Positions 4,539 through 61,649 of a stretch of DNA of 64,000 nt are shown here, piece after piece. A model generated the notes under the pieces. That model ran no database searches and was not told where the DNA came from. It was given only the letters and a program-made list of their open reading frames with translations. This DNA is from Eledone cirrhosa. Its lineage: Eukaryota. Position 1 is the stretch's first letter; each line of letters begins with the position of its first letter. The stretch is from positions 40,362,001 to 40,426,000 of the forward strand of contig OZ024750.1 in the NCBI GenBank assembly GCA_964016885.1. Direction: 5' to 3'. A program made the position numbers and the translations under genes.

Positions 4539-5620
<1,082 letters not shown>

Positions 5621-13348: not shown

Positions 13349-13411
<63 letters not shown>

Positions 13412-13414
<3 letters not shown>

Positions 13415-14039: not shown

Positions 14040-14150
14040 ATATATATATATATATATGTATATACACATATATATAAGTATTGACGTTTATATATATACA
14101 CACACACATATGTATATATATATATACACATATATATAAATATTGAAGTT

Positions 14151-21683: not shown

Positions 21684-22150
21684 ATGAACAATATCCTCCA
21701 AACACACATCATAAAGAGAAAAAGACAACCCAAATCCATAAAAAACATCCTCACACAAGCCAAAATCCAACAAACCCTCACAATAAACCCTACAGTAACA
21801 AAATGCGGAAGGCCCAACTCTGGCATATGCATAAATCTAATAGAAGGTTCAACATTCCATTTTAAACAAGGACAACGTTTCACAGTTAAACATAACTTTA
21901 CATGTGCATCTGAAAACCTTATCTATGTTTTGACCTGCTCAGGTTGTCAAGAGCACTACATAGGACAGACAAAAAACAGCCTCCGTCAACGTATGACCGT
22001 CCATAAATCACAAATTAAAATACAGGAATACAGAAAGATTTAAAATTTTCCCCATTTACAAATTCATAGACAACGCTACTTTCATCCAACGCACCAATAA
22101 GGAAACAATTCATTAATAAATTTCAACCACTACTCGATGCCCTAAAAATC
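21684..22150 (+). pseudogene. 3' fragment of a second Penelope-like family (Neptune-like Cys linker + GIY-YIG)
   Basis: KCGRPNSGIC...FTCASENLIYVLTCSGCQEHYIGQTKNSLRQRMTVH. Flanked by inverted repeats at ~21610-21688 and ~22689-22762; degenerate hammerhead at ~22553-22594. Confidence 0.8.
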
Positions 22151-24254: not shown

Positions 24255-24950
24255 TTATATTGCTCTCGCACGTATGTAGCTGGCAAGAGAACAGGCGAAT
24301 ATACCTCCAACTAGCTGTAAAAATCCAAATATATTACAAGTGGTTCCCAAATAGATTTGACGTTTATGCATCCAAGAAAGGATTTTTTTCGAACAACCAT
24401 ATTCATAAATAGAGATCTTGTTTTTAAAGTTATTTCCACATCCGTTTGTTGGAGAAATACAACAAGAATCTGGGACAGTACCATTGCCCAACACACTGTG
24501 CCATTCAATTGGTTTGTGTACACCGCAGCAGGCAAAACGTTCTTGAATATCATCCCATTCTTTTGTAATTGTACTGTTGTAGAGATATTGCTGTTCAGAC
24601 TTCATCATCCTGGCGCTAACAGAATGACTTGCAATTTTTCTCAGCGAAAAAGCTGCAGTTGAGCTGCCAATTTCAACCATTGTTATAATGACGACAAACA
24701 CAGTAAATGTAGCAATATATTTGTAGCTGTTCTTTAGAGCTCCGACAAGACCAAATATTGACATCAGCATGAGAAGAAAACCTAAAGATATGAGCAAGAC
24801 GGTACATAATTTCATATAGGTTCCCAATAAACAGGGATAAGATTCGGTATAATAGAGGCCACCAAGTGTTATAAGAACCGTAGAAGCAATTAGAAAGAGA
24901 ATATTAAGCAAAATTAAAGCCGTTCTTGTACAAGTTGGACTACATTCCAT
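24255..24950 (-). CDS. Intronless tetraspanin (CD63/TSPAN7-like, 6-Cys EC2), 231 aa from the ATG at 24950
   Basis: Four hydrophobic segments; large extracellular loop EWDDIQERFACCG...EW...VPDSCC...NGCG...YEYGC. The ORF track starts at a TTG (24965); the first ATG gives MECSPTC. Confidence 0.93.
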   Translation of the reverse strand: MECSPTCTRTALILLNILFLIASTVLITLGGLYYTESYPCLLGTYMKLCTVLLISLGFLLMLMSIFGLVGALKNSYKYIATFTVFVVIITMVEIGSSTAAFSLRKIASHSVSARMMKSEQQYLYNSTITKEWDDIQERFACCGVHKPIEWHSVLGNGTVPDSCCISPTNGCGNNFKNKISIYEYGCSKKILSWMHKRQIYLGTTCNIFGFLQLVGGIFACSLASYIRARAI

Positions 24951-30495: not shown

Positions 30496-31200
30496 ATGGT
30501 TGAAGATATATCATCCACGGTTATTCGAATCGCTCGCGCTTCAGTCTGGACTTTGTCCTGTTTCATGTGGTGCAATGCTATAGCTACTATTATCCTTGGC
30601 ATCGTAATAGGATCTATTTACGGTGGTACATTGAGCTCGTTCGGAGCTCATTTTCTGCTTTATTCTCTTCTTTTGGTCTCCTTGGGCTTAATATCCATAT
30701 GTCTCGGTGTATACAGCTTACGCTGTTTAAGGGAATACGACTACTTGGGCATGACGATTTTGGGATATTTTGCTATCATTATTGGAGTCGTTCTGCTTGC
30801 GACTGGAATAACTGGCAGTGTGGTGAAGGGTTACAACAAACCAGCTGTTCTCCGTCATTTACAACTTACCCAAAAACATTATACTACCAACGACAATGAT
30901 AAATATGCATGGGATCTTCTTCAGAGCGAACAACACTGTTGTGGAATTCATACTGGCACAGATTGGTACAAAGTTCTTGGCAACAATATTGTCCCGAAGA
31001 GCTGTTGCTTTTACAAGTTCCCAAGTTGTGGAGTGGGAGATTCTGGGGAATATCCCGAAGGCTGTTTAGCCAGTTATACTAGTCTCATAGACTTTATTCA
31101 AACATGTCTTTCAGTTTACTGCCTCGTGTGCGGATTACTGTTCTTTTTTATAGGAATTGCTCCAGCACACGCCGCCAAAAAAGTTTATGATACTTATTGA
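30496..31200 (+). CDS. Intronless divergent tetraspanin, 234 aa
   Basis: Four TM segments; AWDLLQSEQHCCG...DW...VPKSCC...PSCG...PEGC; uninterrupted ORF. Confidence 0.92.
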   Translation: MVEDISSTVIRIARASVWTLSCFMWCNAIATIILGIVIGSIYGGTLSSFGAHFLLYSLLLVSLGLISICLGVYSLRCLREYDYLGMTILGYFAIIIGVVLLATGITGSVVKGYNKPAVLRHLQLTQKHYTTNDNDKYAWDLLQSEQHCCGIHTGTDWYKVLGNNIVPKSCCFYKFPSCGVGDSGEYPEGCLASYTSLIDFIQTCLSVYCLVCGLLFFFIGIAPAHAAKKVYDTY

Positions 31201-34138: not shown

Positions 34139-34583
34139 TCGTAGATACCTATAGATATATTGAAATGAGTATTCTTTATAAACCTGGTGTTGCATGTATC
34201 TGACAGATGGGTCTTATACTAAAGCAGAGGTTCTCAAACTTTTTGGCCCCACGCTCCTTACGGCCACGTAATACCCTCATCGTCCCCCACCTCTGTTTCC
34301 AGAGAGACCTGCTTACAGGCAAATTGTATATAATTAATAAAATCTTTAATAAATAATATAGACTACGTATAAATAAATATATATTTGATATTTTACTGTT
34401 GTGCGTAAATTTATATTGCAAAACTAAAGCTCGAATTCCAAGCTTTTATTCAATATCTAGAATATAAAAACAGTAATTAGTCTTGAAGAAATATAACAAT
34501 AATATTTGTAAGAAAAGAAAGATATGCAATAAAACAAAGTTATATTGAGGATAGATGAACTTCATAACATTCTTCGCCGATTT

Positions 34584-35506: not shown

Positions 35507-37555
35507 TCACTTAATGAGTTTAGCAGATGGAGGCTTGAAGAATTTTGGCTTGCACTCCAAACATGATGCGTAGTTTTTGACGACGTCGCGGATTTCGTCT
35601 ACGGAAAAGGGCAGGTTATGGCGTCGGATATAATCGTAAAATCTAGTTACTCCTGGGTGTGCTAGTTGGTCATGGAGTACTTTTAAATCACAGGGTGGCG
35701 ATATAGCTGCAACGATTCTTGAAAGACAATCGGCTTGGGTGTTGAGGTAGCCAGGTTTGTAGTCAATGTCAAATTGATGCTCTGATAGTTCTAAACGCCA
35801 GCGAGATATTTTATCATTTTTGATTCGTGATTTATTACTCGAGAAAATGAAGGCTACTGATTTTTGGTCAGTCCGTATAATCGTATGAAAACACTTCACG
35901 TATTGCGACCATCTCCGTACAGCTTCAATAATAGCCATAGCTTCTCGCTCCACAGTTGATTGTCTTTTCTCGGACGGTGTAAGTGTTCTCGACAGGAAGG
36001 CCACGGGCCGTTCGTTTTGAGAAAGTATAGCTCCGATTGCATCGCCAGGCGCATCTGTTTCTATTACCAATGCGTGGCCAGTTTTAAGAGGAATGCTAAG
36101 AGCGGCATTAGAGATATCTGCTTTCATGGCTTGTATTACATCTGTAGCTACTTTATTCAGCGGGAACGAGTCAGCTTGTAATAGTGGTTGGATTTTCTTC
36201 GAGTAATCGGCAATCCACCTAGCATTATAGGCTAGGAATCCAAGGAATCGTTTCAGTTGTTGTTTGTTTGTTGGGATTGGGTAGTCTAGTAGGGTTTTGA
36301 TGCGTTCCTTATCGGGTTTCTTTACTCCGTTCTGAATGTTATAACCTAGTATAGATATACTCGTTTGGCCGATTTTCCTCTTATCCGAGTTAAGAGTGAG
36401 GTTTTCTGTCTTCACGGCGTTTAAGAATGCTTCCACATTTCTATCATGTTCAGCTTTGGTATTTCCCGTGACTATGACGTTGTCAATATAGGCACAGGTT
36501 TTGAGTAAGTTATATTTCTCTATAACTTGATCCATAATTCTCTGAAAAACAGGTACAGCGTTAGTTACGCCGAAGGGTAAGCGGCAGAATTGGTAGAGTT
36601 TGTGATTAGCCTGAAATGCCGTTAGAGGTTTGTCGATTTTTCTTAAAGGTACTTGGTGATACGCTGATTTGAGGTCGAATTCTGAAAAATATTTATCCTG
36701 TACCACTTTGTTAACAACATCCTCAATGTCGGGGGATGGATAGGCATCCAATTGTGTATACTTATTAATTGTCTGGGAGTAGTCTACCACGAGTCGAGGT
36801 TTCTTTCCGTGTACTATGAAGCACTGAGCTCGCCAAGGTGAAATTGATTCCTCAATGATACCAGCTTCTAGGAGGCGAGTTATTTCGGACTTAATAAAAT
36901 TGTCGTCTCTCTTGTTAATGAAACGTCCCTTAGTGGCAATCGGCTTGATATTTGTCTCGGCTAAATCGTGGAAGACAAGAGGCGGATTAACTTCTATTGT
37001 TGGAAAGGTACAGCATAGTTGATTTGAAAATTTCATGGGAGGCCGGGCACCGCCAAGGTGGAGAATAATAGAGCTATGCTGGGTGAGGACATCCATTCTG
37101 ATAATGACGTCTGCGACAAGACTTTTTGCAGTGATTAGGTTCACAGAGTATTCCTCGCTGTAGATACATATTGGTATGGATGTAGTACCAGTCGTCTTTA
37201 ATATTTTATTGTCGGCTAGTGTGATTGCCCGTTTTTCTTGTTTTACGCTCAAGTTTAATTCAGTTGCTATGCTATGACGTATAAACGAATCTGTGGAACC
37301 AGGATCGATTAAGGCCTTTAGTGTGGTGTCTTTTATAGTTATCGGGCAGAGAATAGCTTTAGACTGTTTGCCGGTATTTAATGAACATATAAGTGAGGCT
37401 GCTTGCTTACTGCTTTGGCAGTCAGATTTACAGACTGATTGCCAGTGGCCGATCTTCCCACAAGAATAGCATGTCTTTTCTAGCTGGGCATTTATTTCTA
37501 GGATGCCTAGAAAGTCCACAAAAAAAGCATTTAAATTCACTTTGGGAATTAGCAT
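35507..37555 (-). pseudogene. Gypsy gag Zn-knuckle + protease + RT + RNase H + integrase N-terminus
   Basis: CYSCGKIGHWQSVC; LIDPGST; RLVVDY, FDLKSAYHQV, LPFG, YIDN (second catalytic D changed to N); ETDAPG, EREAMA, IRTDQKS; H...HPG...CLEC. Confidence 0.9.
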
Positions 37556-37956
37556 TTTTCAAGTATTTCAAGTATTTCAGCTTTTATTCAATATCTAGAA
37601 TATAAAAACAGTAATTAGTCTTGAAGAAATATAACAATAATATTTGTAAGAAAAGAAAGATATGCAATAAAACAAAGTTATATTGAGGATAGATGAACTT
37701 CATAACATTTACTATATTTGATATTTATTATATCTCTACCCTCCACCATCACCCTCTTAGGTCCCATTGCCCCTGGACCTTCTCACTGCCATTTGGACGG
37801 AAATATAACGACTAGAGAAAAGTTACACCTCTTGCTAGAAAAAGAAAATTGATTTAAAATCAGAATTGAAGTCGTTTCAGTGGTTCACCCTCCCTCCCAT
37901 ACACACCGTGTGTTTAGAATTATGTTTCCATTATTTAAAATAAATTAACCTTTTTT

Positions 37957-39309: not shown

Positions 39310-39950
39310 CATTACATAATTGTCTGTGAATGCCAGCTTCCTATGGATTGTCGCCAGCAAATAGAGCAGTGGAAACTAATTAATTAGTCCTGGAAGAGGG
39401 AATCTAATTCTCTACCCCCCCCCCCCCCACCAGATCGTTCTTCTCACTATTTAACGTATTAGTGTGACTCTGTTTACATTTGGGTTGGAATCTTAATGAT
39501 ACTAGCTTAATTAAACCATCAAGTGAGTGGAAAAGAGATATCTGATGATTTTGTTTCAGGGCGGTGGATTGGCACTATCGGTAGAGCGTCAGACACCATG
39601 CTTTGCAGCACAGAGTTATGGCCCTTTACGTTCTGAGTTCAAATCCCGCTGAGGTTAACTTTGCCTTTCATCCTTATGGGCTTGATAAAATAAAGTACCA
39701 ATAACACACTGGAGTCGATTTAATCGACTTTCCCTTCCCCTTCAAATTGCTGGCCTTGTGCCTAAAGTAGAAACAATTATTATAATATATATATATATAT
39801 ATATATATTTAAAGGTTAAACAAGGTTCATTGAATAAATCAAAGAATTAGTTTTACAATAGATTGGAAGCACTCAACAGACACGGTTTTCCGGAGTTATT
39901 ATTATTAATTCAAAATATTAACAAAAATAGACATTCGTGTGATCAAGTAT

Positions 39951-40015
39951 ATTTTATTATACATATTTCAGAGGTACTGAGCTATCTTCAACAGTACGCC
40001 CTCATCAGATAAAAT
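39951..40015 (-). ncRNA. Type I hammerhead ribozyme (left arm of palindrome)
   Basis: attttat CTGATGA gggcgtactg...cagtacctct GAAA t-atgt-a TA ataaaat. Confidence 0.72.
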
Positions 40016-40120
40016 AAGATGATGCATGACATACCCTGACATAGTAGATGGTTAAGATTCAGTCATAGTAGTGAATATGATATGACATCTACTATGTCAG
40101 AGTATGTCATGCATCATCTT

Positions 40121-40185
40121 ATTTTATCTGATGAGGACGTACTGTTGAAGATATCTCAGTACCTCTGAAATATGTATAATAAAAT
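40121..40185 (+). ncRNA. Type I hammerhead ribozyme (right arm of palindrome)
   Basis: attttat CTGATGA ggacgtactg...cagtacctct GAAA t-atgt-a TA ataaaat. Confidence 0.72.
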
Positions 40186-40375
40186 ATACTTGATCACACG
40201 AATGTCTATTTTTGTTAATATTTTGTTGAATTAATATATATATATATATAGAGATAGATAATTATATACCTATACCCGCGACTCCTGGCGGAGTCGTAAG
40301 GGGCGTTGTCGTGAGATACGGCGTTTCTAGGGACATTTTTAAAACCTGGCGATTTGAACACAGCCGATTTCTTCC

Positions 40376-40407
<32 letters not shown>

Positions 40408-43400
40408 GGGTTAGAAAAAGAGATATAGAGGAAGAATCGACCTCAGTACTAGGCTGGTACTGTTGTATCGACCTCGAAATAATAGAAGACAGTTGACCTT
40501 AGCGGGATTTGAACTCAGAAAACTGGAACAAATGCTGCAAAGTATTCTATCCGACGTTCTAACGACTCCGCCAATTCGCCGCCAGTCGTGAATATAATAG
40601 GCTCGAAAATATGTCAAGTCTTAGAATGCTGATTGAACGATGTAAGTTCGATAAACAGAAACATATGCTCTAAACACAACCCTACCATTTGGAATGAAAT
40701 AGGATTTCTAATTTTGGCACAAGGTCAGCAATTTAGAGAAAGAGAAAGTCGATTATATCGATTCAGTTCTTGACTGATACTTTATTTTAGCGACTTTGAA
40801 ATGATGAAAAGTAAAGTTGACTTCGGTGGGATTTGAACGAAAGGCACAAAGGAAAGAATACAGTAAAGCATTTTATCCGACTTTCTAACGATTATTTGTA
40901 TGTATGTCCCTTAACTTCTAATATATATATACGACGTTTCTTGGGAATTTAAAGCCAGGTGGAGCCCATCCCTCTCCAGGTCCGAGTACAGCAGATTCAT
41001 TCCAGAGAAAGATAGAAAATGAGAAAGAGATATAGAGGAAGAATCGACCCCAGTTTAGACTGGTACTTTTTTTTATCGACTTCGAAACGACGAAAAGCAA
41101 AGTTGACTTCGGTGGGATTTGAACGAAGGGCGCAAAGAGACGGAAAGGGTACAATAAAGTATTTTATCCGACTTTCTAACGATTATTTGAAGTGAAATAT
41201 AAAAACCTAATCTGATCAGACGACAAGATGTCGGAAACGAGATAAGTACATATCAACTGTACACAGATGTATTCTCTCTACGTTGTTTTCTGTTGTGTTC
41301 GCTGTACCAGTCTGTTCTATAGTGATATATATATTACAGCATTGTTTCAAGGATACACACACTTCAAATATTTAAAGTGTTGTTTATTACATTCATTTCT
41401 AACGAGAGGATTTTAATTGATTGTGTTAACTCCAGAACATTCCTAGCACCAGAACTGGCGCCTGGGTATTCAACACTCTAGGGTAGCTCTATAAACGTGT
41501 TTCCCCTCCCAGTTATACGTCTTAATATATTCCACCCAGCCACTGGAAAGATAAGAAATTAAACGTTGAAAAATTAGATTTTAATAATTTCTTTCTTATT
41601 TAAGCATTTATTGAATAATTAAAGGTGACAATTTATGAGCAACTACCAAGTAGTATCATTGTCCCCATTCCCTCATCGCTCTTTAGTATTCCAGTCTTTT
41701 TAAGATTTAGTCCGAGGGCCATGCATGGAAGTGATCCCTATTAGTGTCAGTATGTGTCATTATATTGCAGTCATCTGTATATTAGACATCTCTTGACACA
41801 GCAGTTGATACTTTTAAGATAAATTACTTGGTAAGATGGCTAGCTGGCCTGAAGTATGATATTTACTATAGATACCATCTGAATTATCGCTGGAAGCTAC
41901 CAGAAAAATTAAAGTAAAGTATATTGTGAATAGAGCAAATACGATAACATGTCCTTAGTTTGACTTCATTTTCTATTTAAAATAGTTCAGTAAGTGAACT
42001 ATTAAAACTCCGTCTGATGGGGAGATCTCGTTCGTGCTCATTTCTCAGTTTTTGTGAAAATGGGTATAGCTTTCATTACGTAAAATCTCCCCATTTTTTG
42101 ACACAGTACCCCCTCCCCCCGTTTGGGTTTTTGGGGTTGACAGGTCACAATTTAACTCTTCCCTTCGTATCAAGGACGCATGTAACACGGTTCCCCAGGT
42201 AAATAAATCTTAGAAAAATCTTCCACAACGTTTCGTGTGCCAAATGATTTAGAGAGCTCAATAAAGATATATTGTGGCATATTTTGCTCTCTATACCAGA
42301 CCTCAACTTCTGAAAACCAATCGGGGAGTACCAGGAAAAAAAATGTACCCCAAAACGAGATTTTACATAATTAAAGCTATACCCATTTTCACAAGAGAAG
42401 TCATCTCTTACCCACAACAAAGTGGGTGGAAGATCTTGCCGTCGGACGGGTGAGTTAACAGGTCTGGTATACATATCTTAAAGCTGGCAAACACCAAATA
42501 TAATATCTGCTATTCTTTGCTTGACGTGGAAACTATACTGGGATTCTAGTAGAATCTGATCAGTGAAGATAACCTGTCGATTAAAAATTCTGTAGGGTTG
42601 TCTTCATACAATAAACGCTAGAAAGGTTCCTCTGAAATATTCACAATGATTCTGTCTGGTTTTTATAGAGTGAAACGAGTACTATATCTCTAGTCATGGA
42701 ACTTTCCCTACACAATATACATAACTACTTTTAGAAATTCAAACATTCTCACTTCCATGTTTCACAATTTTGGCCAGATAAGTCCCTCATTCCAAGAGAT
42801 GGAAACATGGAGAAAAAAATTTGATTCGTCAAAGGAATGTAGTTGGCGGGATCTAAAAAAAGAAAAGCGTGATGCGCCTACTGAGTGTAGCGGATGAAAG
42901 TAAGGATGGACGAAAGAGGGATATATATACTCATCATTCCCTGTCCCCGCTTATTAATTTTTCAGATTTGTTCAACCATCCTGTCTTATCCCACCCCCAC
43001 ACTTATTAAATTTTGCTAATCTATCTCCGGCGAAATTATATATTTCAAGTGGAGCATTCCTGCGACAACTTTTTATACATTAAACAAAGATTATACATGA
43101 CAAAAATACATTACTAGAAATCCTTTGTTATAAAATAAATAGAATGGGGTCTCAACATGTAAACTAAACGTTTTTTTTTTTTTTTTTTTTTTTTTCTTTT
43201 TGTTAAAAAAAAAAATAAAAAAAAAAATAATCAACGGAGACAACCTTGAAAAGTTACCACTAAGTCAAGAGTCATATCGGTGCCGTATTAACATACGTTT
43301 CTAGTGCACGATTTAAACCCGGGGGAGGGGGGGGGGGGGACCCATCCGTCTCTCCAGGTCTGAATACAGCAGATTTCTTCGTGAGAAGCATAGAAAGTGA

Positions 43401-45203
43401 GAAAGAGATAGGGGAAGGATTGATCCCAGTAGTTGACTGCTACTTTTTTTATTAACCTCGGCAGGATTTGAACAGTGAGCCGGAACTAAGACTGCAAAGT
43501 ATTGTTTCTGACGTTCTGACGAATGGTAATTCGTCGCCTGACTGAAAGAAGTCTAAACATTTCCAGTATTCTTTGTTTAAATCTAGGTTGACCCAGATGG
43601 CAAAACATTGGCCCAGTCGTAACTTGAGTTAGAGCGACAGATTAAATGTGTTGAGGATCAGAGTTCAAATCCAGTAGAGATCAACTTGGCCATTTATCCT
43701 ATCGGGGTCAACAAATCTTTTGAATGTAGTGGGTTAATGAAGATTGTTAGAGCGTCGGACGGAATGCCTTGCAGCTTCTGTTCTGGGCCTGTACTTTGAG
43801 TAAAAAGAAAAGAATATATATCATCAAACTGGGTCAGCTAATATTAAAACACGAGATGATACTTCGTAAGAGGCCAACTAAACATAAAACAGGTGTGTGT
43901 GTGTGAAAACAAAAACCGTGTTTTAGTATATATTTCGGACAATTCTTCCTTTAAGAAACTTAAAATTTTAGTGAATTCAGCTATTTCTAGCATGTAAAAT
44001 GACCGTATTCGTTTTTTTTTTTCTTTAATGCCAGTGGAAAATACGTGTTTATATATACAATAAATGTATTTAAAAATAAACAAATATGGTGGCTGTTATT
44101 AAAAAAAAATTTACGAAGTCTTCGGTACAAATTTAAATTTATTACAAATGAATTGGATTAGAAAGCGGTTCTCAGTTTTCAATTGGACGATATAACTAAA
44201 TGAATAAAATGGAATCTGAATCTTTAGCCAGAATTAAATAGTGTAAAGCCACTAAGTAGGGGGAGATTTGATTGCTATTTCTAGCAGGTCAAGCGACCAC
44301 GAGGAAGCTCTACCCATGGCTAGTTATGTGTTAGTTACAGCCAACAAGGTTTTCATGAATCTGAACGACATTGGTATTAACTAGAATTCGACAATGGCTG
44401 ACAAAGTTTAAATACGGAGGACGTCATTTCTCAACGGTTTTCCAACGATTTATTTCGGAATCTGTTTTGTTTTTATCTTGAACCTTTTTTTTTTTTTTTT
44501 CGCCCATTGCTATGTATTTTCAATATCCTCTATGTATATTGGGGTCTAGAAAGTTCAACAGATGTCTTGAGTATAAATACTGCTTACAATTTCAGGTTTG
44601 CCAATCATCAAATACGAACAAAGCTTCTTTGTACGGGCTTTCATTTTATTTCGAATGTCATTACATTTCAGTGTCACAGTTTCGTTTTATTTCCGGGTAT
44701 ATCGGACCCTACTCTTTACCAATGCCAAAACTAACAATTTCCAGCAATTACTGGAAAGTATTCAAATTTGGTTAAGTTTTTGGAAGTTTCGGCGTTGAGT
44801 GAAATATCAGCCATCTCCATTAAAAGATGAAGTTCAGAGACCAACTTAGATACATATTGAACTTTGACCAGCTAGAGATCTGTTGAATCTGAATCAATGG
44901 AATAATGAATATCTGAAAAGATCATGGGAGGAGGGGGGGGGGGGTTAACCATCAAAGATCATTAGTTATTGATGTACAAAAGCGTCGTTCATATTTTGAA
45001 GTTAATATAGAACAATCCACAGGTTTTAAGTCTTGTGTTAAAGATTTGGGATTAATTATTCGTATTAACAAGCATAGTTAAATGTGAAACTATCTTGAAA
45101 TTTAGTATTTCATTTTCATCGATAACAGATAACAGTAGTAGTACTAAGATAAAAACAGTCAACAGTGATATAACAATATAAAAATATAAATATTTCAAAT
45201 ACA

Positions 45204-45935
45204 TCATAGATTATCATATTTATCCAATTTCTTATCAAGATAGATGGGGATTGACAGTAAGCAGAGATGGAAAACACTAGATATAACCCCGAATACAGAA
45301 ATACCAACTTGCAAAGAATTGGTATAAAAAACGTAACATTTGAGACAGTCGTTGCGGTAATAGTTGTATTTAGCGATGGCTTGGTAGCCACATCCTGGTG
45401 ATTTAGAAATACAACACGAATCAGGAAGATTATGGTCTCCCAAAATTCTAAACCATTCGTTCGGTGAATTAATGCCACAGCATTGCATTAGATTTTGAGT
45501 TGTGTTCCATGCGATTTGTGAAGTAGGGTCATTTATATAGTTCCTTTGAGCAGATTCCATGCGATTGTTAACTTCACCATGAACGTAATTTGTTGCTCCG
45601 ATACCAACAAAACCAGTGAGACACTGTGAAACTCCTAGTATTACTACGAAACATGTCATAACATTTAAGCCAAAGGTACTATTCGTTATCAACGAACCCA
45701 CACCAATTACTGCGAGGACGAAATAGATTATTCCTAAACATAGCAGAAAAATAGCAATAAGCTGGAAATGGCCACCAAATATATTTAAATCGCCACCGTA
45801 ATGAATTTGTATTATGATCCCAAATGCAGTGGAGAAGAAGGCACTACATAATAACAAAGAACTAAGAAGTCCAAAACAACATCTCGTGCAGCTTAGTGTC
45901 CATTGTCTCACGGTGTCTGTTGGAAGGTCAGCCAT
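45204..45935 (-). CDS. Intronless tetraspanin, 243 aa (left copy of the inverted pair)
   Basis: Four TM segments; AWNTTQNLMQCCG...EW...LPDSCC...PGCG...NDCLKC; C-terminal YDNL. Confidence 0.93.
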   Translation of the reverse strand: MADLPTDTVRQWTLSCTRCCFGLLSSLLLCSAFFSTAFGIIIQIHYGGDLNIFGGHFQLIAIFLLCLGIIYFVLAVIGVGSLITNSTFGLNVMTCFVVILGVSQCLTGFVGIGATNYVHGEVNNRMESAQRNYINDPTSQIAWNTTQNLMQCCGINSPNEWFRILGDHNLPDSCCISKSPGCGYQAIAKYNYYRNDCLKCYVFYTNSLQVGISVFGVISSVFHLCLLSIPIYLDKKLDKYDNL

Positions 45936-46397
45936 ATTGATTTTTCGAGTTGAATTGTTTTAATGGCTCTGTATCAGACGGCTGATATTTGTAATTGTAT
46001 AAGCTAATAGTCTCGCCTAATTTGTGAGGGGTTAATTTAAATATGAAAAGAATGTCTTGAAACAGTCGAAAAGGGGAGAATAAGATTATATATATATAGA
46101 GCGAGAGATGGGAGAGAGATAATATCTATAGAAGTCGGTAGGCAAGATCGATTCCAGAAGAATTCATTTGATATTAATTTTCAGAAATAGTTAACTTAAG
46201 TCTAGACACTATAAATAATATATTTCTTGGTTATTTCTGTTGTTATACCAGAAGAAATAGAGACCTGCCTTAGTTTCTAGATAAATCTCAAATAAGGTGA
46301 TTGACCTTGGACATTTTATGGTCTTTATATTAAAAGATGGATTTTTTTAACAATGAAAACTAAAGTCGGATATAGGTTGCTCTGTTTTCTTGTTTTT

Positions 46398-47000
46398 CCC
46401 TTCTTCGCCCATTTATTCCTGGGAGGGTCGTGGGGGCAGAGTCCTCAAACACTCCATCTAGCGGGTCCTGTCAGAAGCAACAGTCTCCAACTGATCCGAC
46501 TAGATCCCCCAAGCGTGGCCAGCCAAGCTCATGGATGTTATCCAACCATCTTACTCGGGGTTTATCCCTGAGTCTCTTACCTGTTGGTTTTGCCCATTAA
46601 ATCTGTCCAACGATTCTTTCCTGGGACATTCTAACCACATGTCCATAGTATCGGAGCTGTGATCTCTCAATTCGGAGAAGTAGCAGCTCTACCTGGAGTG
46701 ACTCTCCAGTGATTCTTTCCTGGGACATTCTAACCACATGTCTATATTATCACAGCTGTGATCTCTCAATTCGGTGAAGTAGCAGCTCTACCTGGAGTGA
46801 CTCTCCAGTGATTCTTTCCTGGGACATTCTAACCACATGTCTATATTATCACAGCTGTGATCTCTCAATTCGGTGAAGTAGCAGCTCTACCTGGAGTGAC
46901 TCTCCAGTGATCCTTTCCTGAGATATTCTAACCACATGTCCGTATTATCGGAGCTGTGATCCCTCAATTCGGAGAAGTAGCAGCTCTACATGGAGTGCTT
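46398..47000 (-). mobile_element. RTE-type LINE 3' fragment with a ~99 bp internal unit amplified x4
   Basis: Same sequence family as 25640-26030; tandem units from ~46612. The counterpart in the other arm (~49130-49390) has a single unit. Confidence 0.75.
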
Positions 47001-47495
47001 TGTTTTCATTGTTTAAAATACATATATATTTTTTACAACTCTGTAGCCTGTGTACATTCTTCAAAGTTACCTTATGCGACACATGGGCAACCACAAAAAC
47101 TAAAGCCCTAAAAGAATTGTCTTGATGAATCTACCAATAAAACTCTGTATTGAGTTCTATCAACATAATCTGTCTCACCTTAAATAGGTGAATATACAAC
47201 ATACATACACACACACACACACATATATATATATAACGCACCAGAGTACTCAATACTTAGGGTAGTAGAGTGGGTAATAGGAAAATGTATAACCCCGACG
47301 GCAGAGCTCCAGAAATAGCCGTCGAAACGGCTGGAGCTCTGCCGTCGGGGTTATACATTTTCATATATATATATGTGTATGTATGTATGTATGTTGTATA
47401 TTCACCTATTTAAGGTGGGACAGATTATGTTTATAGAACTCAATACAGAGTTTTATTGGTAGATTCATCAAGACAATTCTTTTATATATGTGTGT

Positions 47496-47545
<50 letters not shown>

Positions 47546-48120
47546 AAAAGAGTCAGAATCCCTGGTCCTGACTCTTTTCCTATTACCCACTCTACTACCC
47601 ACAGTATTGAGTACTCTGGTGCGTTATGGTCCACCTGGTTCCTTACCACACTTCCTTCGTTATATATATATATATATATGTAAAAGGTAAACAGAAATAA
47701 CAACACAATCGGTACAGTATATGGAAGGTATATATTAGGTTAACGCTTGAAATAGCAGGAAAAGGGTCTGAACGTTTCGGACGCTGGTCAACAAAGAAAG
47801 TGTGGTAAAAAACCAGGTGGACCATAATGCACCTGAGTACTCGATACTTAAGTTAGTAGAGTGGGTAATAGGAAAAGAGTCAGGACACCAACGGCTGAGC
47901 TCCGGCCGTTTCGACACCTAGATCCAAACTCAGTTCGGATCTACCAAACTACTAAAACACATATATATTTGTATATGGCCTACAATTTATGTACATGTTA
48001 TGTTTATAACATATCGAAGTTTTCTTACCATTTAAGAGTGCAAAGAGCTAAACTAATCACTACAACTAAATTGACCAAATTTATCCCACCCCACACAATT
48101 CAGAAATGCTTCCAGCGCCC

Positions 48121-48183
<63 letters not shown>

Positions 48184-48354
48184 AAAAAGAGATGAAATCG
48201 AAAATGCAACTGGAGTCTTATTTTTTTAAAAAATATATATATTTATTTGGTTCCTTTACCGGTTTCGCAGTTCTTCTACTTTTCAAAAGGTGAGCTGAGA
48301 TGGAGGGTCTGTGGTTTTTCTCGGTTATTTTTTATTTTGTAAAAAATCCCTCAC

Positions 48355-48433
<79 letters not shown>

Positions 48434-48569
48434 ACACTGGAAGGTATTATCCGTAGCGGTAGAGCACTCAGTCCATGGGACGAGTTTGGTAGAAGTAGTA
48501 ACACAACGGTTAGTTCACCACACCGAGAACAATTGTTTCACCTTATGCGGATCTTCAGTAATACCAGTC

Positions 48570-48608
48570 CGAGCTGAAGATCTGCATAAGGTGAAACAAC
48601 TGTTCTCG
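48570..48608 (+). ncRNA. Minimal type I hammerhead ribozyme
   Basis: cgag CTGAAGA tctgcataaggt GAAAC aact GTT ctcg. The inverted partner at ~48524-48558 has a palindromic AATT loop. Stem II is weak. Confidence 0.6.
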
Positions 48609-48637
48609 CTGTGGTGAACTAACCGGTTGTGTTACTA

Positions 48638-48701
<64 letters not shown>

Positions 48702-48706
48702 TGTAT

Positions 48707-48946
48707 ATATATGAATGTATATATATAGTGTATTTTGCAATACACTGTATGCTTAATTAAAATAATTTCGAAGACCTTATGCTATTGTTTTAGAGTAGTG
48801 ACAGTCTCACTTACTTTAATTTTCAGCAAAATTAAAGTAAGTGAGACTGTCACTACTCTAAAACAATAGCATAAGGTCTTCGAAATTATTTTAATTAAGC
48901 ATACAGTGTATTGCAAAATACACTATATATACATTCATATATATAT
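48707..48946. repeat. Near-perfect palindrome (~115 bp arms, 4 nt loop)
   Basis: ...cttactttaatttt cagc aaaattaaagtaag... Confidence 0.92.
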
Positions 48947-49665
48947 CGTTATTTCAGAGCACCAATTCTAATTTTTTTTTAATATATATATATATATAAT
49001 TTGATGAATTTACCAATACAGCGTATTGGTAAATTCATTAAGATAATGCTTTTAGGGCTTTAGTTTTTGTGGCAGACCATATGTAACATAAGTTATAAAA
49101 AATATATGTATTTTCAACAATGAAAACAAAGCACTCCAGGTAGAGCCCAACTTCTCCGATTTGAGAGATCACAGATCCGGTACTATGGGAATGCGGTTAG
49201 AATGTCTCAGGAAAGAATCACCGGAGAGTCACTCCAGGTAGACCCCGAGAAAGATGGTTGGATAATATCCATGAGCTTGGCTGGTAACACTTGGGGATAC
49301 AGCCGGATCAGTTGGAGACTGTTGCTTCTGACAGGACCTGCTGGAAGGAGTGTTTGAGGGACTCTGCCCCCACGACCCTCCCAAGAAGAAAACAGAGCAA
49401 CCTTTCTCCGACTTTTGTTTTCATTGTTCAAAGAATCCATCTTTTAATATAAAGACCATAAAATGTCCAAGGTCAATCACCTTATTTGAGATTTATCTAG
49501 AAACTAAGGCAGGTCTCTATTTCTTCTGGTATAACAACAGAAATAACCAAGAAATATATTATTTATAGTGTCTAGACTTAAGTTAACTATTTCTGAAAAT
49601 TAATATCAAATGAATTTTTCTGGAATCGATCTTGCCTACCGACTTCTATAGATATTATCTCTCTC

Positions 49666-49746
<81 letters not shown>

Positions 49747-49784
49747 ATTAAATAAATGGAAAACTATATTTATAAAACCATATC

Positions 49785-49850
49785 TATTTCATTATATATA
49801 TTTCGGGGATATCATATTAACAATATGCTATGCCTTCATCAGACAAAATA
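49785..49850 (-). ncRNA. Type I hammerhead ribozyme (same family as 2114-2179)
   Basis: tattttgt CTGATGA aggcatagcatatt-gtt-aatatgatatcccc GAAA t-atat-a TA atgaaata. Confidence 0.72.
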
Positions 49851-50141
49851 CAATATAAACAGTTTTATAGATAACAATTTTAAATATAACTTTACATGTA
49901 TATATATATATATACATGTATATATATATATATACATACATATATATATATACATATAATATATATATATACATATAAATATAATATATATATAATATAT
50001 ATAATATATATATATAATACATATATATATAATATATATAATATATATAATATATATATAATACATATAAATATAATATATATATAATATATATATACAT
50101 ATATATATACATATAAATATATATACATTTAAATATAACTT

Positions 50142-50185
<44 letters not shown>

Positions 50186-50292
50186 CATGCATGTATGTAA
50201 TCTTATTCTCCCCTTTTCGACTGTTTCAAGACATTCTTTTCATATTTAAATTAACCCCTCACAAATTAGGCGAGACTATTAGCTTATACAAT

Positions 50293-50303
50293 TATAAATA
50301 CCA
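50293..50303 (+). promoter_or_regulatory. Candidate TATA box TATAAATACCA
   Basis: 58 bp upstream of ATG 50351; the same 11-mer occurs at 30360, upstream of the 30496 gene. Confidence 0.45.
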
Positions 50304-50350
50304 GCCGTCTGATACAGAGCCATTAAAACAATAGAACTCGAAAAATCAAT

Positions 50351-51091
50351 ATGGCAGACCTTTCAGCAGACGCCGTGAGACAATGGAAGCTAAGCTGCAC
50401 GAGATGTTGTTTCGCACTTCTTAGTTCTTTGCTATTATGTAGTGCCTTCTTCGCCATTGCATTTGGGAGCATACTACAAATTCATTACGGTGGAGATTTA
50501 AATATATTTGGAGGCCATTTCCAGCTTATTGCTATTTTTCTGCTATGTTTAGGAATAATCTACTTCGTCATCGCAGTAATTGGTGTGGGTTCGTTGATAA
50601 TGAAGAGTACTGTTGGCTTAACTGTTATGGCATGTTTTGTAATAATACTAGCAGTTTCACAGTGTCTTATTGGTTTTATTGGTATCGGAGCAACACGCTA
50701 TGTTCAGGGTGCTGTTAAAAATCGCATGGAATCTGCTCAAAGGAACTATATAAATGACTCTACTTCACAAATCGCATGGAACACAACTCAAAATCTAATG
50801 AAATGCTGTGGCATTAATTCACCGAACGAATGGTTTAGAATTTTGGGAGACCATAATCTTCCTGATTCGTGTTGTATTTCTAAATCGCCAGGATGTGGCT
50901 ACGAAGCCATTGCTGAAGACAACTATTACCACAACGACTGTCTCAAATGTTACGTTTTTTATACCAATTTTTTCCAACTTGGTATTTCTGTATTCGGGGT
51001 TATATCTAGTGTCTTCTATCTCTGCATACTATCAATCCCGATCCATCTTGAAAAGAAATTGGATAAAGATGATAATCTAGGACATATTTGA
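50351..51091 (+). CDS. Intronless tetraspanin, 246 aa (right copy of the inverted pair)
   Basis: About 85% aa identity to 45204..45935 (37 differences over 243 aa by manual count); same Cys pattern. Confidence 0.93.
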   Translation: MADLSADAVRQWKLSCTRCCFALLSSLLLCSAFFAIAFGSILQIHYGGDLNIFGGHFQLIAIFLLCLGIIYFVIAVIGVGSLIMKSTVGLTVMACFVIILAVSQCLIGFIGIGATRYVQGAVKNRMESAQRNYINDSTSQIAWNTTQNLMKCCGINSPNEWFRILGDHNLPDSCCISKSPGCGYEAIAEDNYYHNDCLKCYVFYTNFFQLGISVFGVISSVFYLCILSIPIHLEKKLDKDDNLGHI

Positions 51092-51643
51092 AATATTTAT
51101 TATATTTTTATATTGTTATATCACTGTTGACTGTTTTTATCTTAGTACTACTACTGTTATCGATGAAAATGAAATACTATATTTCAAGATAGTTTCACTT
51201 TTATCTATGCTTGTTAATACGAATAATTAATCCCAAATCTTTAACACGAAACTTAAAAACTGTGGATTGTTCTATATTAACTTTAAAATATGAACGACGC
51301 TTTTGTACACCAATAACTAATGATCTTTGATGGTTAACCCCCCCCCCCCCCCCTCCTCCCATGATTTGTTTCTGCTGGGATTACTTTTCCAACGGCAAAT
51401 ATTGCTCTCCGATTAAGTCGGATCAATTTCAAGACAACTGGTGATCCATTTTTTTTTTTTTTTTTTTTTTTGGTCGCCAAATTAAATCTGGTTATGTTTC
51501 ATATAACACTTTACTTACAAAGAACTCAATACTTGGCTGTTTGTATTCCATTTATTTTACTAGTTTAATTTGGTATATAGTTTCTGCCATACCAATTCTT
51601 ATGGAATCATATTCAATGAACAATTACTACCAATAGAATTACC

Positions 51644-51687
<44 letters not shown>

Positions 51688-51708
51688 TATAATATATATA
51701 TAATATAT

Positions 51709-51745
<37 letters not shown>

Positions 51746-53539
51746 TATATAATATATATATAATATATATATAATATATTATATAATATATTATATAATA
51801 TATATATAATATATATATAATATATTATATTATATATATATATATAATATATTATATTATATATATATAATATATATATAATATATTATATTATATATAT
51901 ATAATATATATATAATATATTATATTATATATATATATATATATATATAATGCTTCAAACAGCACGAACTCTAATCTAAACATTCTGTTCAGATATTCAT
52001 TATTCCATTATGATTGATTCAACAGATCTCTAGCTGGTCAAAGTTCAATATGTATCTAAGTTGGTCTCTGAACTTCATCCTTTAATGGAGATGGCTGATA
52101 TTTCACTCAACGCAGAAACTTCCAAAAACTTAACCAAATTTGAATACTTTCCAGTAATTGCTGGAAATTGTTAGTTTTGGCATTGGTAAAGAGTAGGGTC
52201 CGAAAATAAAACGAAACTCTGTGACACTGAAATGTAATGACATTCGAAATAAAATGAAAGCCCGTACAAAGAAGCTTTGTTCGTATTTGATGGTTGGCGA
52301 ACCTGAAATTGTAAGCAGTATTTATACTCAAGACATCTGTTGAGAACTTTCTAGACCCCAATATACATAGAGGATATTGAAAATACATAGCAATGGGCGA
52401 AAAAAAAAAAAAAAAGGTTCAAGATAAAAACAAAACATTCAGAAATAAATCGTTGGAAAACCGTTGAGAAATGACGTCCTCCGTATTTAAACTTTGTCAG
52501 CCATTGTCGAACTCTAGTTAATACCAATGTCGTTCAGATTCATGACAACCTTGTTGGCTGTAACTAACACATAACTAGCCATGGGTAGAGCTTCCTCGTG
52601 GTCGCTTGACCTGCTAGAAATAGCAATCAAATTTCCCCCTACTTAGTGGCCCTATCTTAAATAGGGAAGACGCGCACAATATTTCTGGCTAAAGATTCAG
52701 ATTCCATTTTATTCATTTAGTTATATCGTCCAGTTGAAAACTGAGAACCGCTTTCTAATCCAATTCACGGCTGACATGAAATTCATTTGTAATAAATTTA
52801 AATTTGTACCAAAGACTTCGTAAATTTTTTTTTTTTAATAACTGTAATGTCTTGAGCTGTAATTTTAATAATAGCAACCATATTTGTTTATTTTTAAATA
52901 AATTTATTGTACACATAAACACGTATTTTCCACTGGTATTACCGATTTAAACAAAAGAATACTGAAAATGGTTAGACTTCTTTCAGGAAATTACTGGCTT
53001 AATCTTTGATTTGACGAATATATACACCTCCAAGCCGGCGAATTACCATTCGTTAGAACGTCAGATACAATACTTTGCAGTCTTAGTTCCGGTTCACTGT
53101 TCAAATCCTGCCGAGGTCAACTTTGCCTTTCATCCTTTCAAGATCGATAAAGAAGTAGCGGTCAACTACTGGGATCGATCCTTCCCCTATCTCCTTCTCA
53201 CTCCCGTTCTCACTTTCAAGGACGGTGGATTGGCAGTATCGGTAAAGGGTCAGACGCCATGCTTTGACGCATAGTTATGGCCTTTGCCATTCTGAGTTCA
53301 AATCCCGCCGAGGTTAACTTTGCCTTTCATCCTTACGGGGTCGATAAAATAAAGTATCAGTAATGTATTGGGATAATTACTGGCCTTGTGCCAAAAGTAG
53401 AAACAATTATCTCGCTTTCTATATTTCTCTGGAAGAAATCTGTATTTAGACCTGGAGAGACGGATGGTCCCCCCCCCCCCCGGTTTAAATCGTGCACTAG
53501 AAACGGCGTATGTTAATACGGCACCGCTATGGCTCTTGG

Positions 53540-53860
53540 TTTAGTGGTTAGAACATTGGGCTTGCAATCGGGAGGTTGAGTTCGCATCTCGGACCGGGTG
53601 ATGCGTTGTCTTTGAGCAAGACGCTTTATTTCACGTCGCTCCGGTTTACTCGGCTGTCGACTTGAGTAACGACGTCACTGGTGCTAAATTGTATCGGCCA
53701 TTGCCTTTCCTTTGGACAACATAAGTGGCGTGGAGAGGGACAACTGGTATGCATGGGTGACTGCTGGTCATCCACAAACATCCTTGCTCGGACTTGTTCC
53801 TCAGAGAGGAACTTTCTAAATACAAATCCCTTGGTCATTCGTGACCGAAGGGGGTCATCA
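53540..53860 (+). mobile_element. tRNA-derived SINE family C
   Basis: Head tagtggttaga...gagttc, then gtc(c/t)ttgagcaagac(a/g)cttta. Related copies at 54325-54510(+) and 58420-58610(-), plus a tail at ~57705-57860(-). Confidence 0.7.
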
Positions 53861-53869
53861 CCGTTACCT

Positions 53870-53906
<37 letters not shown>

Positions 53907-54881
53907 AGCTCCTACAGGAATTACGGGACCATACCATACTCCTCTAGCCCCAAAAGAATATCACCTAACTTTGTTTGAAAAATTCATCTCCACCTTTTCT
54001 CATCCATATTCAAACCTAAAGTAGTTTACAATTGTTCGTTATGGAGATTATTTTAAATATTTCGAGAGAACAGTCGGCATATTTTGTGGCATCGAAGAAA
54101 CTCCAACGCCATGAACGACCCCCACCACAATTCTGTCATTAAATTTTGAAAAATAAGTTTAACACAAAATAACTTTCACCCAACATGATCCAACCTTCGA
54201 CCTCCAAGATATATATTTCAAGTTTTCTCCCGACAAAGCTGTATACATATAAGTATGTGAACTTCGTATATCTAATGATACACGAAATTTATATATATAT
54301 ATATATAAATATTTAGTGAAAGCTGAGTGGTTAGAGAATTGGCTTCGCAATCGTGAGGTTGTGAGTTCAATTCCTGGACCAGGCGATGCGTTATGTCCTT
54401 GAGCAAGACACTTTATTTCACCTTGCTCCTTCTTCCTGGAGTTGCGACCGATAGATAGTATTAGCAATTGGAAAGACCAACGGAAACATTGTTTCCTCGG
54501 TCCGATTTGACGAAAGTCGATCGCTCCTTAAAATATATATATGTATTAACGAAGATCACTCAACAAATCTAGTGAATTGCAGTTATGCAGCTGCAATCAT
54601 CTGTTCAGTGCACGTAGTTTTACTGTAGGGCATTGGCTATGTTTTTAATTGGGGATGGATGTTATATATACATTTTATTTACGTTGTCTGGTTTCACTAA
54701 TAGAGTTTGTCCAATATGTCACGTAGTGGAATCGAACGCAGAGCTTCATGATCACACCAATAGGTGAACATCACTAAATATTCTACTGAATGACATACGT
54801 TAAAAAAGACTTTATAAAGGAGAAAGAAAACAAAACCGAGCTGTTGTTGATAGTGACTACCTCAAGAAATCGAGACTAAAC

Positions 54882-55000
54882 AACAAATGCCATATCACGC
54901 TGAAAACACCGGTTCTCGTCCGATCACCGAAGTTGAGCAACGTCGATCCTGGTTAGTACTTAGATGGGTGACCGCTTGGGAAACCAAGCTGCTTACAGCA
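54882..55000 (+). pseudogene. 5S rRNA-derived copy (pseudogene or SINE head)
   Basis: ccatatcacgctgaaaacaccggttctcgtccgatcaccgaagttgagcaacgtcg...ggttagtacttagatgggtgaccgcttgggaa matches the metazoan 5S core. The terminal stem is degenerate and the copy is single, not an array. Confidence 0.88.
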
Positions 55001-55844
55001 GCTATGTTTCCCCTCTGTCAATGGGGCGCAGCACTTTTGCCCTCTTGCCCTAGGCCCACATCCAATCACCCTTTCCGTCACCCCTCTCTTCTACGACACC
55101 AGGGCTCTTGTCACCCCCCCCCCGCCTTCCCGATCCTTTGCTTCTTTCTCTCTTTTTTTTCTATATATTTTTCTATATTTCTCTATTCTTTCTTTCCTTT
55201 TGTTTCCCCTTTTATATTATTTCTATATTAAAAATAAACGTATTATTTACAAAAAAAAAAAAAAAAAAAATTATGCTTAAAGGAAAACATATTTTCTTTG
55301 TTAGCAGGGAACTGTGACAGTAATAGACAAGATTTATAGTCTTATTGGATATCACACAAACCCGCTTCTTCGGCAGACTAGTTTTTATAAATAGGGAAAA
55401 AAGGGTTACGAAGATTCTGGGCTGGTAATAATTTGAACAAGGTTTTTTTTTAAAATTAATTTAGTCAAGGGAAATATGTCTGGTTTCATAATATACTGGA
55501 GACAGACATCGTCAAAAGTCAATACAATAAAATTCTAATGTAATGAAAATAATTGTTTCTACTTTAGGCACAAGGCCAGCAATTACCCAGTGCATTACTG
55601 GTACTTTATTTTATCGACCCCGTAAGGATGAAAGGCAAAGTCAACCTCGGCGGGATTTGAACTCGGATCATAAAGGGACGTAACTATGCTGGAAAGCATG
55701 GCGTCCGACCCTCTACCGATACTGCCAATACACCGAAAATAATATGTGTAGTTTGGATATCGGTGGAAAGAAAAAACCACACGCACGCACTCACTCACTC
55801 ACTCACTCACTCACTCACTCACTCTCTCTCTCTCTTCACATATG

Positions 55845-56110
55845 GCATTTCTTGGACATTTTAAACTTCGTGGGGCCCATCCCTTCCCGGGCCTGAATAC
55901 AGCAGATTTCTTCCAGAGAAAGATAAAAAATGAGAGAATGGAAGTGAGAAAGAGAAAGAATCGACCCCATTACTAGACTGGTACTTTCTTTATCGACCCG
56001 GAAAGGATGAAAAGCAAAGTTGACCTCGGCGGGATTTGAACTCAGAGAGCTGAAACAAATACCACAAAACTTTTTATACGACGTTCTAACGACTCTGACA
56101 ATTCGCCACC
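55845..56110 (-). mobile_element. SINE family B (shares the central domain with family A, different 3' tail)
   Basis: Shared ctttcatcc...gtcgataa...gtaccag core followed by a ctctggaagaaatctgctgtattcag tail. Other copies at ~19770-20000, 40270-40580, 40930-41190, 43300-43540, 53030-53490, 57870-58200 and 59955-60450. Confidence 0.7.
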
Positions 56111-60911: not shown

Positions 60912-61649
60912 ATGTCAGTGTGCTCGTACTCCGCGAAATATTTACTAGTTCTGCTAAATGTATTCTTTGTGATCGTTTCGTTGGTACTTATTGCGGTCGG
61001 ATCTCTCATGCAGGTATCGTTTCATGTCTATGCTCAGGTGTTCCATCACAGTGTCAGTCTACCTGCTGTGCTAATAATTTCTCTCGGCGTCTTAATATTG
61101 ATGACTTCAATTTTTGGCCTAGTGATCGTCCTGAAAGAAAGATATATTCTGTTATCTGTGTATTCCTGCATACTTGTAGTTCTCGTTATTGCTGAAGTAT
61201 TAATTGGACTGGTCGGTGTTACCTTGAAGACATACGTACGTCAAATTGTCATCCATACTATGGAAATAGCCGAGAAGAAGTTTAACGAGAGCCTTTCTGC
61301 CGCTTACACCTGGAATACTATTCAGAACAACTTGCAGTGTTGCGGTATTTTGAGCTACAAGGAGTGGTATAAATTCTTAAACAAAACGGTACCAGATTCT
61401 TGCTGCATCACCTATGATTACAGCTGTGGTTCCGACGCTATTGAATTCAACAACGTTTACAAGAATGGTTGTGCTAAAGCTATGTTTCACTGGCTCTCTG
61501 AGCACCAGATTGTTATTGGTGGACTTTGTGCTGCTTTTGTCTTACTCAAGATCTTAGCGCTAATGTTAGCGCGCTGTTACGGCAAATATCTGGTGGAATT
61601 TACGACACAACCTAGCTTAACTCCATTCAGATCTTCCAGATGGAAATAG
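60912..61649 (+). CDS. Intronless tetraspanin, CD63-like, 245 aa
   Basis: AKYLLVLLNVFF TM1 with the conserved N; TM3 E; TWNTIQNNLQCCG...EW...VPDSCC...SCG...YKNGC. Confidence 0.95.
   Translation: MSVCSYSAKYLLVLLNVFFVIVSLVLIAVGSLMQVSFHVYAQVFHHSVSLPAVLIISLGVLILMTSIFGLVIVLKERYILLSVYSCILVVLVIAEVLIGLVGVTLKTYVRQIVIHTMEIAEKKFNESLSAAYTWNTIQNNLQCCGILSYKEWYKFLNKTVPDSCCITYDYSCGSDAIEFNNVYKNGCAKAMFHWLSEHQIVIGGLCAAFVLLKILALMLARCYGKYLVEFTTQPSLTPFRSSRWK

Follow-up and report, generated by a model that had tools for sequence, protein, structure and literature searches.

Within a 64,000-nucleotide stretch of the Eledone cirrhosa genome (GenBank assembly GCA_964016885.1, contig OZ024750.1, forward-strand positions 40,362,001 to 40,426,000; hereafter the window, with positions counted from its first letter), we identified five tetraspanin genes, each contained in a single open reading frame (ORF) and set in AT-rich DNA with numerous microsatellites. 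Two of them, copy A and copy B (Table 1), sit head-to-head in an inverted repeat and are the main subject of this analysis. Both match the Tetraspanin family PF00335 (65.9 bits for A and 70.9 bits for B, gathering cut-off 32.1). The predicted structure of copy A (predicted local distance difference test score 91.9) has the tetraspanin fold, with four membrane helices (6-47, 56-84, 87-113, 197-242) and a large second loop with helices at 115-165; all five Foldseek matches to this model at E<=0.001 were tetraspanin-family chains. The CCG motif and the EC2 cysteines (C152 C153 G154 C174 C175 C182 C197) are the same in all 82 aligned sequences, among them A and B.

The initial annotation of this DNA had described the pair as inverted twins whose coding sequences diverged more than their non-coding flanks. 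The inverted arrangement stands; its extent does not, the repeat being longer than first noted, with arms that reach about 43256 and 53548 and edges that are 7-11% diverged. Our recount bore out the figures given by eye: 37 of 243 residues differ, the first 150 codons hold 24 amino-acid differences and 10 silent-only codons (about 25 and 10 had been reported), and the reported one or two differences at 46115-46340 and five in the proximal 155 bases became 1/226 and 5/155. The coding sequence does exceed the interior flanks, both at silent sites (17.5/166 vs 33/1487, p=2.5e-6) and at replacement sites, where nonsynonymous divergence (dN) is three times the flank rate (p=2.4e-6). Silent and flank divergence, compared along the arm as had been proposed, were thus unequal.

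Substitution divergence along the arms follows a W-shaped profile: 63/667 (9.4%) at the edges, 33/1487 (2.2%) in the interior flanks and about 10% at synonymous coding sites. The edges exceed the interior flanks (p=1e-12), also when CpG sites are left out, and match the synonymous sites (p=0.77). Because synonymous divergence (dS) matches both edges, we place the likely age of the duplication at about 0.10 changes per site, an age for which the flanks are too similar. Judged from the sequence, then, the anomaly lies in the flanks, which are unusually alike, and not in the coding region, which is not unusually fast. These flank counts omit ragged indel margins (44887-44942, 44234-44247), a microsatellite margin (46091-46098) and the stop codon of A. 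The inner-edge count comes from pairwise alignments, and a first distal estimate of 47/413 agrees with it.

Table 1. Genes, arms and divergence segments in the window (A-arm positions, with B-arm counterparts in parentheses; differences are between A and B).
Feature	Position	Strand	Remarks
Copy A, single-ORF tetraspanin, 243 aa	45204-45935	-	slower-evolving, YDNL end
Copy B, single-ORF tetraspanin, 246 aa	50351-51091	+	faster-evolving, DDNLGHI end, N135 sequon via P137S
Arm A	43256-47490 (ends approximate)	-	inner end passes through fold-back element into TA run
Arm B	48985-53548 (ends approximate)	+	
Spacer, about 1.5 kb	47491-48984	.	TA/GA microsatellites and short fold-back repeats
Inner edge	46344-47108 (49049-49433)	-	dispersed-repeat fragment, 99-base tandem array and lead-in; 40/359 differ (11%)
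Near-identical upstream block	46099-46343 (49434-49678)	-	2/242 differ; 183-base identical run
Proximal upstream shoulder	45936-46090 (about 50196-50350)	-	5/155 differ
Coding region	45204-45935 / 50351-51091	-/+	56/729 bases differ
EC2 core, codons 124-184	45384-45566 (50720-50902)	-	3 differences/183 bases
Copy A terminal YxxL codons (Y240-D-N-L) and stop	45204-45218	-	common to three octopod orthologs
Copy B tail	51068-51091	+	Y240D and stop loss adding G-H-I; tyrosine motif gone
3' shoulder	44943-45203 (about 51083-51339)	-	10/254 differ, 2 of the 10 inside B's extra codons
Near-identical downstream block	44248-44886 (about 52019-52650)	-	8/628 differ
Outer downstream flank	44026-44233 (about 52683-52941)	-	8/208 differ
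Outer edge	43256-43583 (52944-53548)	-	23/308 differ (7.5%)
B-only segment, 509 bases	49679-50187	+	microsatellite and dispersed repeat 96% identical to 2041-2203
B-only segment, 623 bases	51357-51979	+	insertion in B or deletion in A (no polarity)
A-only segment, 440 bases	43584-44025	.	sets off outer edge
Tetraspanin T24255, single ORF	24255-24950	-	best match 75% to Argonauta GAB1597360
Tetraspanin T30496, single ORF	30496-31200	+	best match 37% to Argonauta GAB1597359
Tetraspanin, single ORF	60912-61649	+	best matches 76-77% to Octopus proteins

The initial annotation had offered two explanations, accelerated protein evolution after duplication or gene conversion between the arms. The first is not upheld for the pair as a whole. 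Over the methods used, dN (0.072-0.077) is below dS (0.093-0.113), dS equals the edge divergence, and only B is accelerated. Across methods dN/dS is 0.63-0.83, not significantly above 1; bootstrap intervals around 0.65-0.83 include 1, and a codon model gives 0.66-0.74 (p=0.19-0.33 against 1). With 343 replacement to 106 silent sites (3.2:1), the 25:10 ratio that had been taken as a sign of acceleration lies below the neutral one. Conversion is the better of the two options.

Along the protein, the EC2 core (residues 124-184, NRMESAQ...SPGCGY) is nearly unchanged, as had been reported, with two replacements and one silent change, a scarcity that is non-random by residue (p=0.03) and by base (p=0.003). 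The accompanying claim of clusters rich in replacements did not hold up: no hot spot along the coding region is significant (p=0.5), and the second transmembrane segment (TM2, 56-84) holds only two replacements. Conversion had also been invoked for the sameness of the core. That part is not borne out, since the core is the most conserved part among orthologs too (20/61 vs 100/182, p=0.003), and its shortage of silent changes does not reach significance (1/38 vs 16/128, p=0.12); homogenisation of the flanks, by comparison, fits the W profile of these two sequences.

The profile has further structure. Divergence is graded within the flanks, at 15/409 adjoining the gene and 10/870 just past the two large indels (p=0.004), and it steps sharply at 46343 from about 10% to the long identical run. 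At the edges, the parts outside SINE-like (short interspersed element) and array segments still exceed the flanks (24/298, p=3.5e-6), one of them having a 50-base match to a dispersed repeat. In the gene, silent-site classes are heterogeneous (chi2=77, 6 degrees of freedom), and CpG sites changed more often than in the flanks (14/56 vs 6/70). CpG hypermutation was rejected as the only cause, the excess being lowered and not abolished when it is allowed for. An A-to-G bias, as expected from edited complementary DNA, was absent (7 A>G vs 4 G>A, 12 C>T vs 6 T>C).

These site classes bear on the idea that the duplication is as young as its flanks suggest (2%) and that the coding region was accelerated, hypermutated, or replaced by a divergent allele or a third paralog. 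The raised dN and the CpG changes speak for it, as do two-fold non-CpG sites that resemble the flanks; however, dS is not raised by selection, four-fold non-CpG sites exceed the flanks (6/75 vs 27/1417, p=0.005) and both edges stand at 7-11%. The window contains no third close copy of A/B, and each of three other species has a single ortholog. We regard a young duplication as very improbable.

If the flanks are too similar for an older duplication, purifying selection could have kept them so without conversion: the pair would be about 0.10 old, the flanks conserved as promoter, 5' untranslated region (UTR) and 3' UTR, and the protein weakly constrained. The low zones do correspond to 400 bases on the upstream side of the gene and 1.2 kb on the downstream side, and the edges are mostly repeat-derived. 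By eye, a TATA-like word lies in the upstream block, and the downstream block contains the first poly(A)-type hexamers, about 510 bases beyond the stop, so that it may be 3' UTR; the upstream block is putatively either a conversion tract or promoter and 5' UTR. Constraint on this scale, however, would have to remove about 87-92% of mutations over 245 and 630 continuous bases, in flanks that nevertheless hold 11 indels, the 509- and 623-base ones included. No other gene of the cluster shares the upstream block, and an Rfam scan of 43000-56000 found no family inside the arms. Constraint without conversion therefore seems to us improbable.

We also considered whether the two arms might be an assembly artefact, with two haplotypes set down as an inverted tandem or the flanks fused during polishing. 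Flank differences of 1-4% are of allelic size. Past both outer arm ends, however, matches up to 10 kb away are confined to dispersed repeats, so the arms do not represent two alleles of a single locus set next to each other, and the spacer halves share no homology above 20-base matches. The window contains no N, and polishing would not bring 10% divergence down to 2%. The B stretch was contained in three of the six sequencing runs listed, all from one sample and study; no RNA run was listed among those containing it, which tells neither for nor against expression. One run (X1) contains 0.76 of the words sampled from 50200-51330, and only 218 of the 1101 31-mers of that interval recur elsewhere in the window; together these figures weakly suggest that B-specific words exist outside the assembly, X1 being possibly the source sample and not independent of it. 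We consider an artefact extremely unlikely.

Several repeat features accompany the arms. Fold-back (self-inverted) elements occur at 5195-5590, 13348-14101, 21224-21600, 39903-40236, 47109-47484, 48490-48643 and 48704-48945, several of them within the spacer or adjoining it. The inner end of the duplication is marked by the element at 47109-47484, whose counterpart near 49001-49050 is collapsed. A 99-base tandem array of four units (46603-46997) lies inside the dispersed repeat in arm A, and arm B has about one unit. The dispersed repeat in the 509-base segment is a 164-base AT-rich sequence set in TA runs (49711-49874); this copy may have inserted recently and, lying 155 bases ahead of the B gene, could alter B expression.

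The two copies have evolved asymmetrically. Polarised by three orthologs, the 37 replacements comprise 20 derived in B, 5 derived in A, 2 conflicting and 10 unpolarised. Tajima relative-rate tests against three outgroups find B faster (p=0.001, 0.004, 0.016), tree branch lengths are 0.11 for B and 0.053 for A, and dN/dS (omega), if silent changes are assumed to split evenly, comes to about 0.9-1.2 for B and 0.26-0.5 for A. Relative-rate counts within the inner repeat fragment are small (4 vs 6 and 2 vs 1). Copy B has no indel and no internal stop and retains 15 of 15 cysteines, and the 34 single-base replacements between the copies are more conservative than neutral (p=0.007); as far as its reading frame tells, B is not decaying outright. 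It has also gained an N-glycosylation sequon at N135, and the charge of its 183-196 loop is -4, compared with +1 in A and -1 in the orthologs. Two side analyses were set aside. An acceleration on the stem before the duplication is hinted at by the tree (0.32) and not by relative-rate counts (27 vs 22 and 30 vs 22, p=0.57 and 0.33), and polarising silent changes by a GC-to-AT rule proved powerless on replacements of known direction (8 vs 8).

A candidate target of selection lies at the C-terminus of B, where a putative targeting motif was lost in the same copy that evolved faster. The terminal residues are KYDNL in copy A, YDKL, YNKL and YDNL in the three orthologs and YELI in the Argonauta sister paralog; a terminal tyrosine motif of this kind is found in 36 of 174 tetraspanin-like proteins. 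The end of B, DDNLGHI, reflects two separate changes (Y240D and the stop loss) that hit this one motif. Through its terminal GYEVM, which binds AP2 and AP3, CD63 is taken up to late endosomes (PMC12203959), and a CD63 Y-to-A mutant (CD63-YA) is mainly at the plasma membrane (PMC8289845). By analogy, YDNL would have a sorting role, copy A would be endosomal and copy B, having no terminal YxxL, is predicted to remain at the cell surface as the mutants do. A and B resemble CD63 and CD63-YA (PMC8289845, PMC12203959) in that A carries a terminal Yxx-hydrophobic motif and the tyrosine loss in B parallels the surface-resident mutant; unlike CD63, they lack a glycine before the tyrosine and fall in a different clade from fish CD63.

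The reading that we favour, at roughly even odds (about 50%), is that an inverted duplication had its flanks re-homogenised by conversion, with the coding region spared by selection for the changes in B, the YxxL loss included. An octopod tetraspanin would have been duplicated in inverted orientation at a time corresponding to about 0.10 substitutions per site; later the arms, inverted and close together, would have exchanged conversion tracts that reset the flanks, and the edges would have decayed. Tracts spanning the gene would have failed to persist. Those from B to A would be blocked by purifying selection on A, and because dS stands at its full age A-to-B tracts must be absent too, which selection for the state of B would explain. 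The changes in B, its terminal YxxL loss among them, would shift the protein from endosomes to the cell surface, and both copies are presumably expressed. That arm-to-arm conversion caused the low flanks, and that selection and not chance caused the coding peak, are what we infer from these two sequences, and it is plausible that selection keeps the paralogs distinct, as the initial annotation had proposed.

A number of observations weigh against this reading. The conversion argument draws on only two DNA sequences from one genome, the orthologs having been compared as proteins. The silent excess is uneven: two-fold non-CpG sites are flank-like (1/88), and without CpG sites the excess shrinks to 7 changes where 2.5 are expected (p=0.016). 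Silent changes show no significant tendency to lie near replacements (p=0.15). Within the SINE-like stretch of the inner edge, A and B are about as distant from each other (11/126) as either is from a dispersed copy D (9/95, 10/95), which makes this stretch a weak clock, and the low-divergence flanks overlap what are probably promoter and UTR regions. Divergence is nearly uniform across the interior flanks (run tests p=0.40 and 0.14; chi2 p=0.02), so two or three tracts may suffice and could miss the gene by chance. The omega of B is near 1, its changes fall alike in ortholog-invariant and variable columns (17/120 vs 20/123, p=0.72), and its 18 derived single-base replacements are only marginally conservative (p=0.06); all three fit relaxed selection. 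Finally, the YDNL of copy A is without the glycine that precedes the tyrosine in CD63.

Several of these points would be accommodated if conversion homogenised the flanks and missed the gene by chance, or was shut off by prior divergence, with B a relaxed spare copy whose motif was lost neutrally. The few tracts needed, the omega of B, the even spread of its changes and the fast evolution of the A/B orthogroup in any case all fit. Yet B is without indel or stop where the non-coding ratios predict 3.6-9.3 indels (P=0.03 to 1e-4), a figure that AT-rich non-coding DNA may overstate, and under this reading conversion reaches the gene on both sides, with identical runs of 97 bases before and 92 bases after. 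We think a chance miss possible, though unlikely.

Returning to conversion opposed by selection, we see the pair as a further example of a known pattern in duplicated genes and not as a new kind of system. Decayed edges and coding peaks are published signatures of conversion with selection (PMC2588116, PMC3924837), and we counted them in favour of our reading. Divergence peaks under conversion have been described in the Teshima and Innan model, human red/green opsins and Drosophila Pre28 transporters (PMC3924837, PMC2588116), and a genome scan has searched for them (PMC2588116). A/B likewise form a local peak of paralog divergence, high at the presumed target of selection within homogenised surroundings; the opsin and Pre28 peaks are narrow and confirmed with orthologs, whereas that of A/B, seen between the two paralogs, covers nearly the whole coding region, with a dip at the EC2 core. 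Divergence raised at both block edges is shared with Drosophila Amy and Bob (PMC2588116), whose profiles are high at the edges and low mid-block; A/B add the central coding peak that makes the W.

The colobine pair RNase1/RNase1B (PMC3924837) is similar in that non-coding divergence is lower than coding divergence and replacements are heaped on the derived copy; conversion with selection has been proposed there, and disputed. For RNase1/RNase1B the functional shift was assayed and several species were compared, whereas for A/B there is one genome, dS is as high as at the edges, the copies are head-to-head and inverted, and function is predicted. Relocalised duplicates often show accelerated amino-acid evolution in one copy (PMC4202327). 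The asymmetric rate of A/B is like theirs, those being plant pairs with measured localisation and that of B being predicted.

A more specific proposal, which we put forward only tentatively and think on the unlikely side, is that B, through the loss of its terminal tyrosine motif, would be a naturally arisen surface form of a tetraspanin that is otherwise endosomal, and that selection would keep it distinct in the face of continuing palindrome-type conversion. The pair would then parallel, in a cephalopod, the opsins and RNase1B, the selected change being the protein's place in the cell. If our favoured reading is true, the locus is a compact natural case for testing how young duplicates escape conversion, with the C-terminal sorting motif as candidate target, and flank identity would understate the age of the duplication about four-fold.

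The closest proteins to A and B (identities given in that order) are from Octopus bimaculoides (62%, 56%), O. sinensis (60%, 55%) and Argonauta hians (49%, 44%). Because each of these three species has one ortholog, the duplication is likely lineage-specific on the proteins compared; annotation gaps might conceal further copies. The Argonauta orthologs of T24255, T30496 and A/B bear consecutive accessions (GAB1597360, 359 and 358) in the same order as here, and the order of the cluster looks conserved. In a midpoint-rooted tree of 28 rows, T30496 and P0006 join A/B and the three orthologs in a clade of their own (100/100), with fish CD63 (P0004/P0005) elsewhere; the database names of the A/B relatives read 'CD63-like', yet A/B do not group with this vertebrate CD63. 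Evolution is much faster in the subfamily of T30496 and A/B than in its cluster neighbours, A having 49% and T24255 75% identity to their Argonauta orthologs. This points to a conserved yet fast-evolving cluster of single-ORF tetraspanins in octopods. Squid tetraspanin-8 has been used as a neuronal marker (PMC9839350). A search of titles and abstract openings returned no description of the A/B pair or of an octopod tetraspanin cluster, although cephalopod gene-family tables may hold one, and octopus tetraspanin expansion has no occurrence in the paper and preprint of Styfhals et al.

Other elements lie elsewhere in the window. An intact ORF of 1088 amino acids (6466-9732, reverse strand), without a Pfam match at E<=0.1, has by eye a reverse-transcriptase YVDD motif and a C-terminal GIY-YIG-like motif, and presumably belongs to a Penelope-like element; a GIY-YIG fragment is found at 21684-22043. 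A protease, reverse transcriptase and RNase H ORF (35507-37555, reverse strand) lies between identical 131-base direct repeats (34441-34571 and 37579-37709) and is, given their identity, likely a young long terminal repeat retrotransposon. Lastly, Rfam reports a 5S ribosomal RNA match at 54889-54992 on the forward strand (78.8 bits, model positions 8-112 of 120), which is either a gene or a derived repeat.

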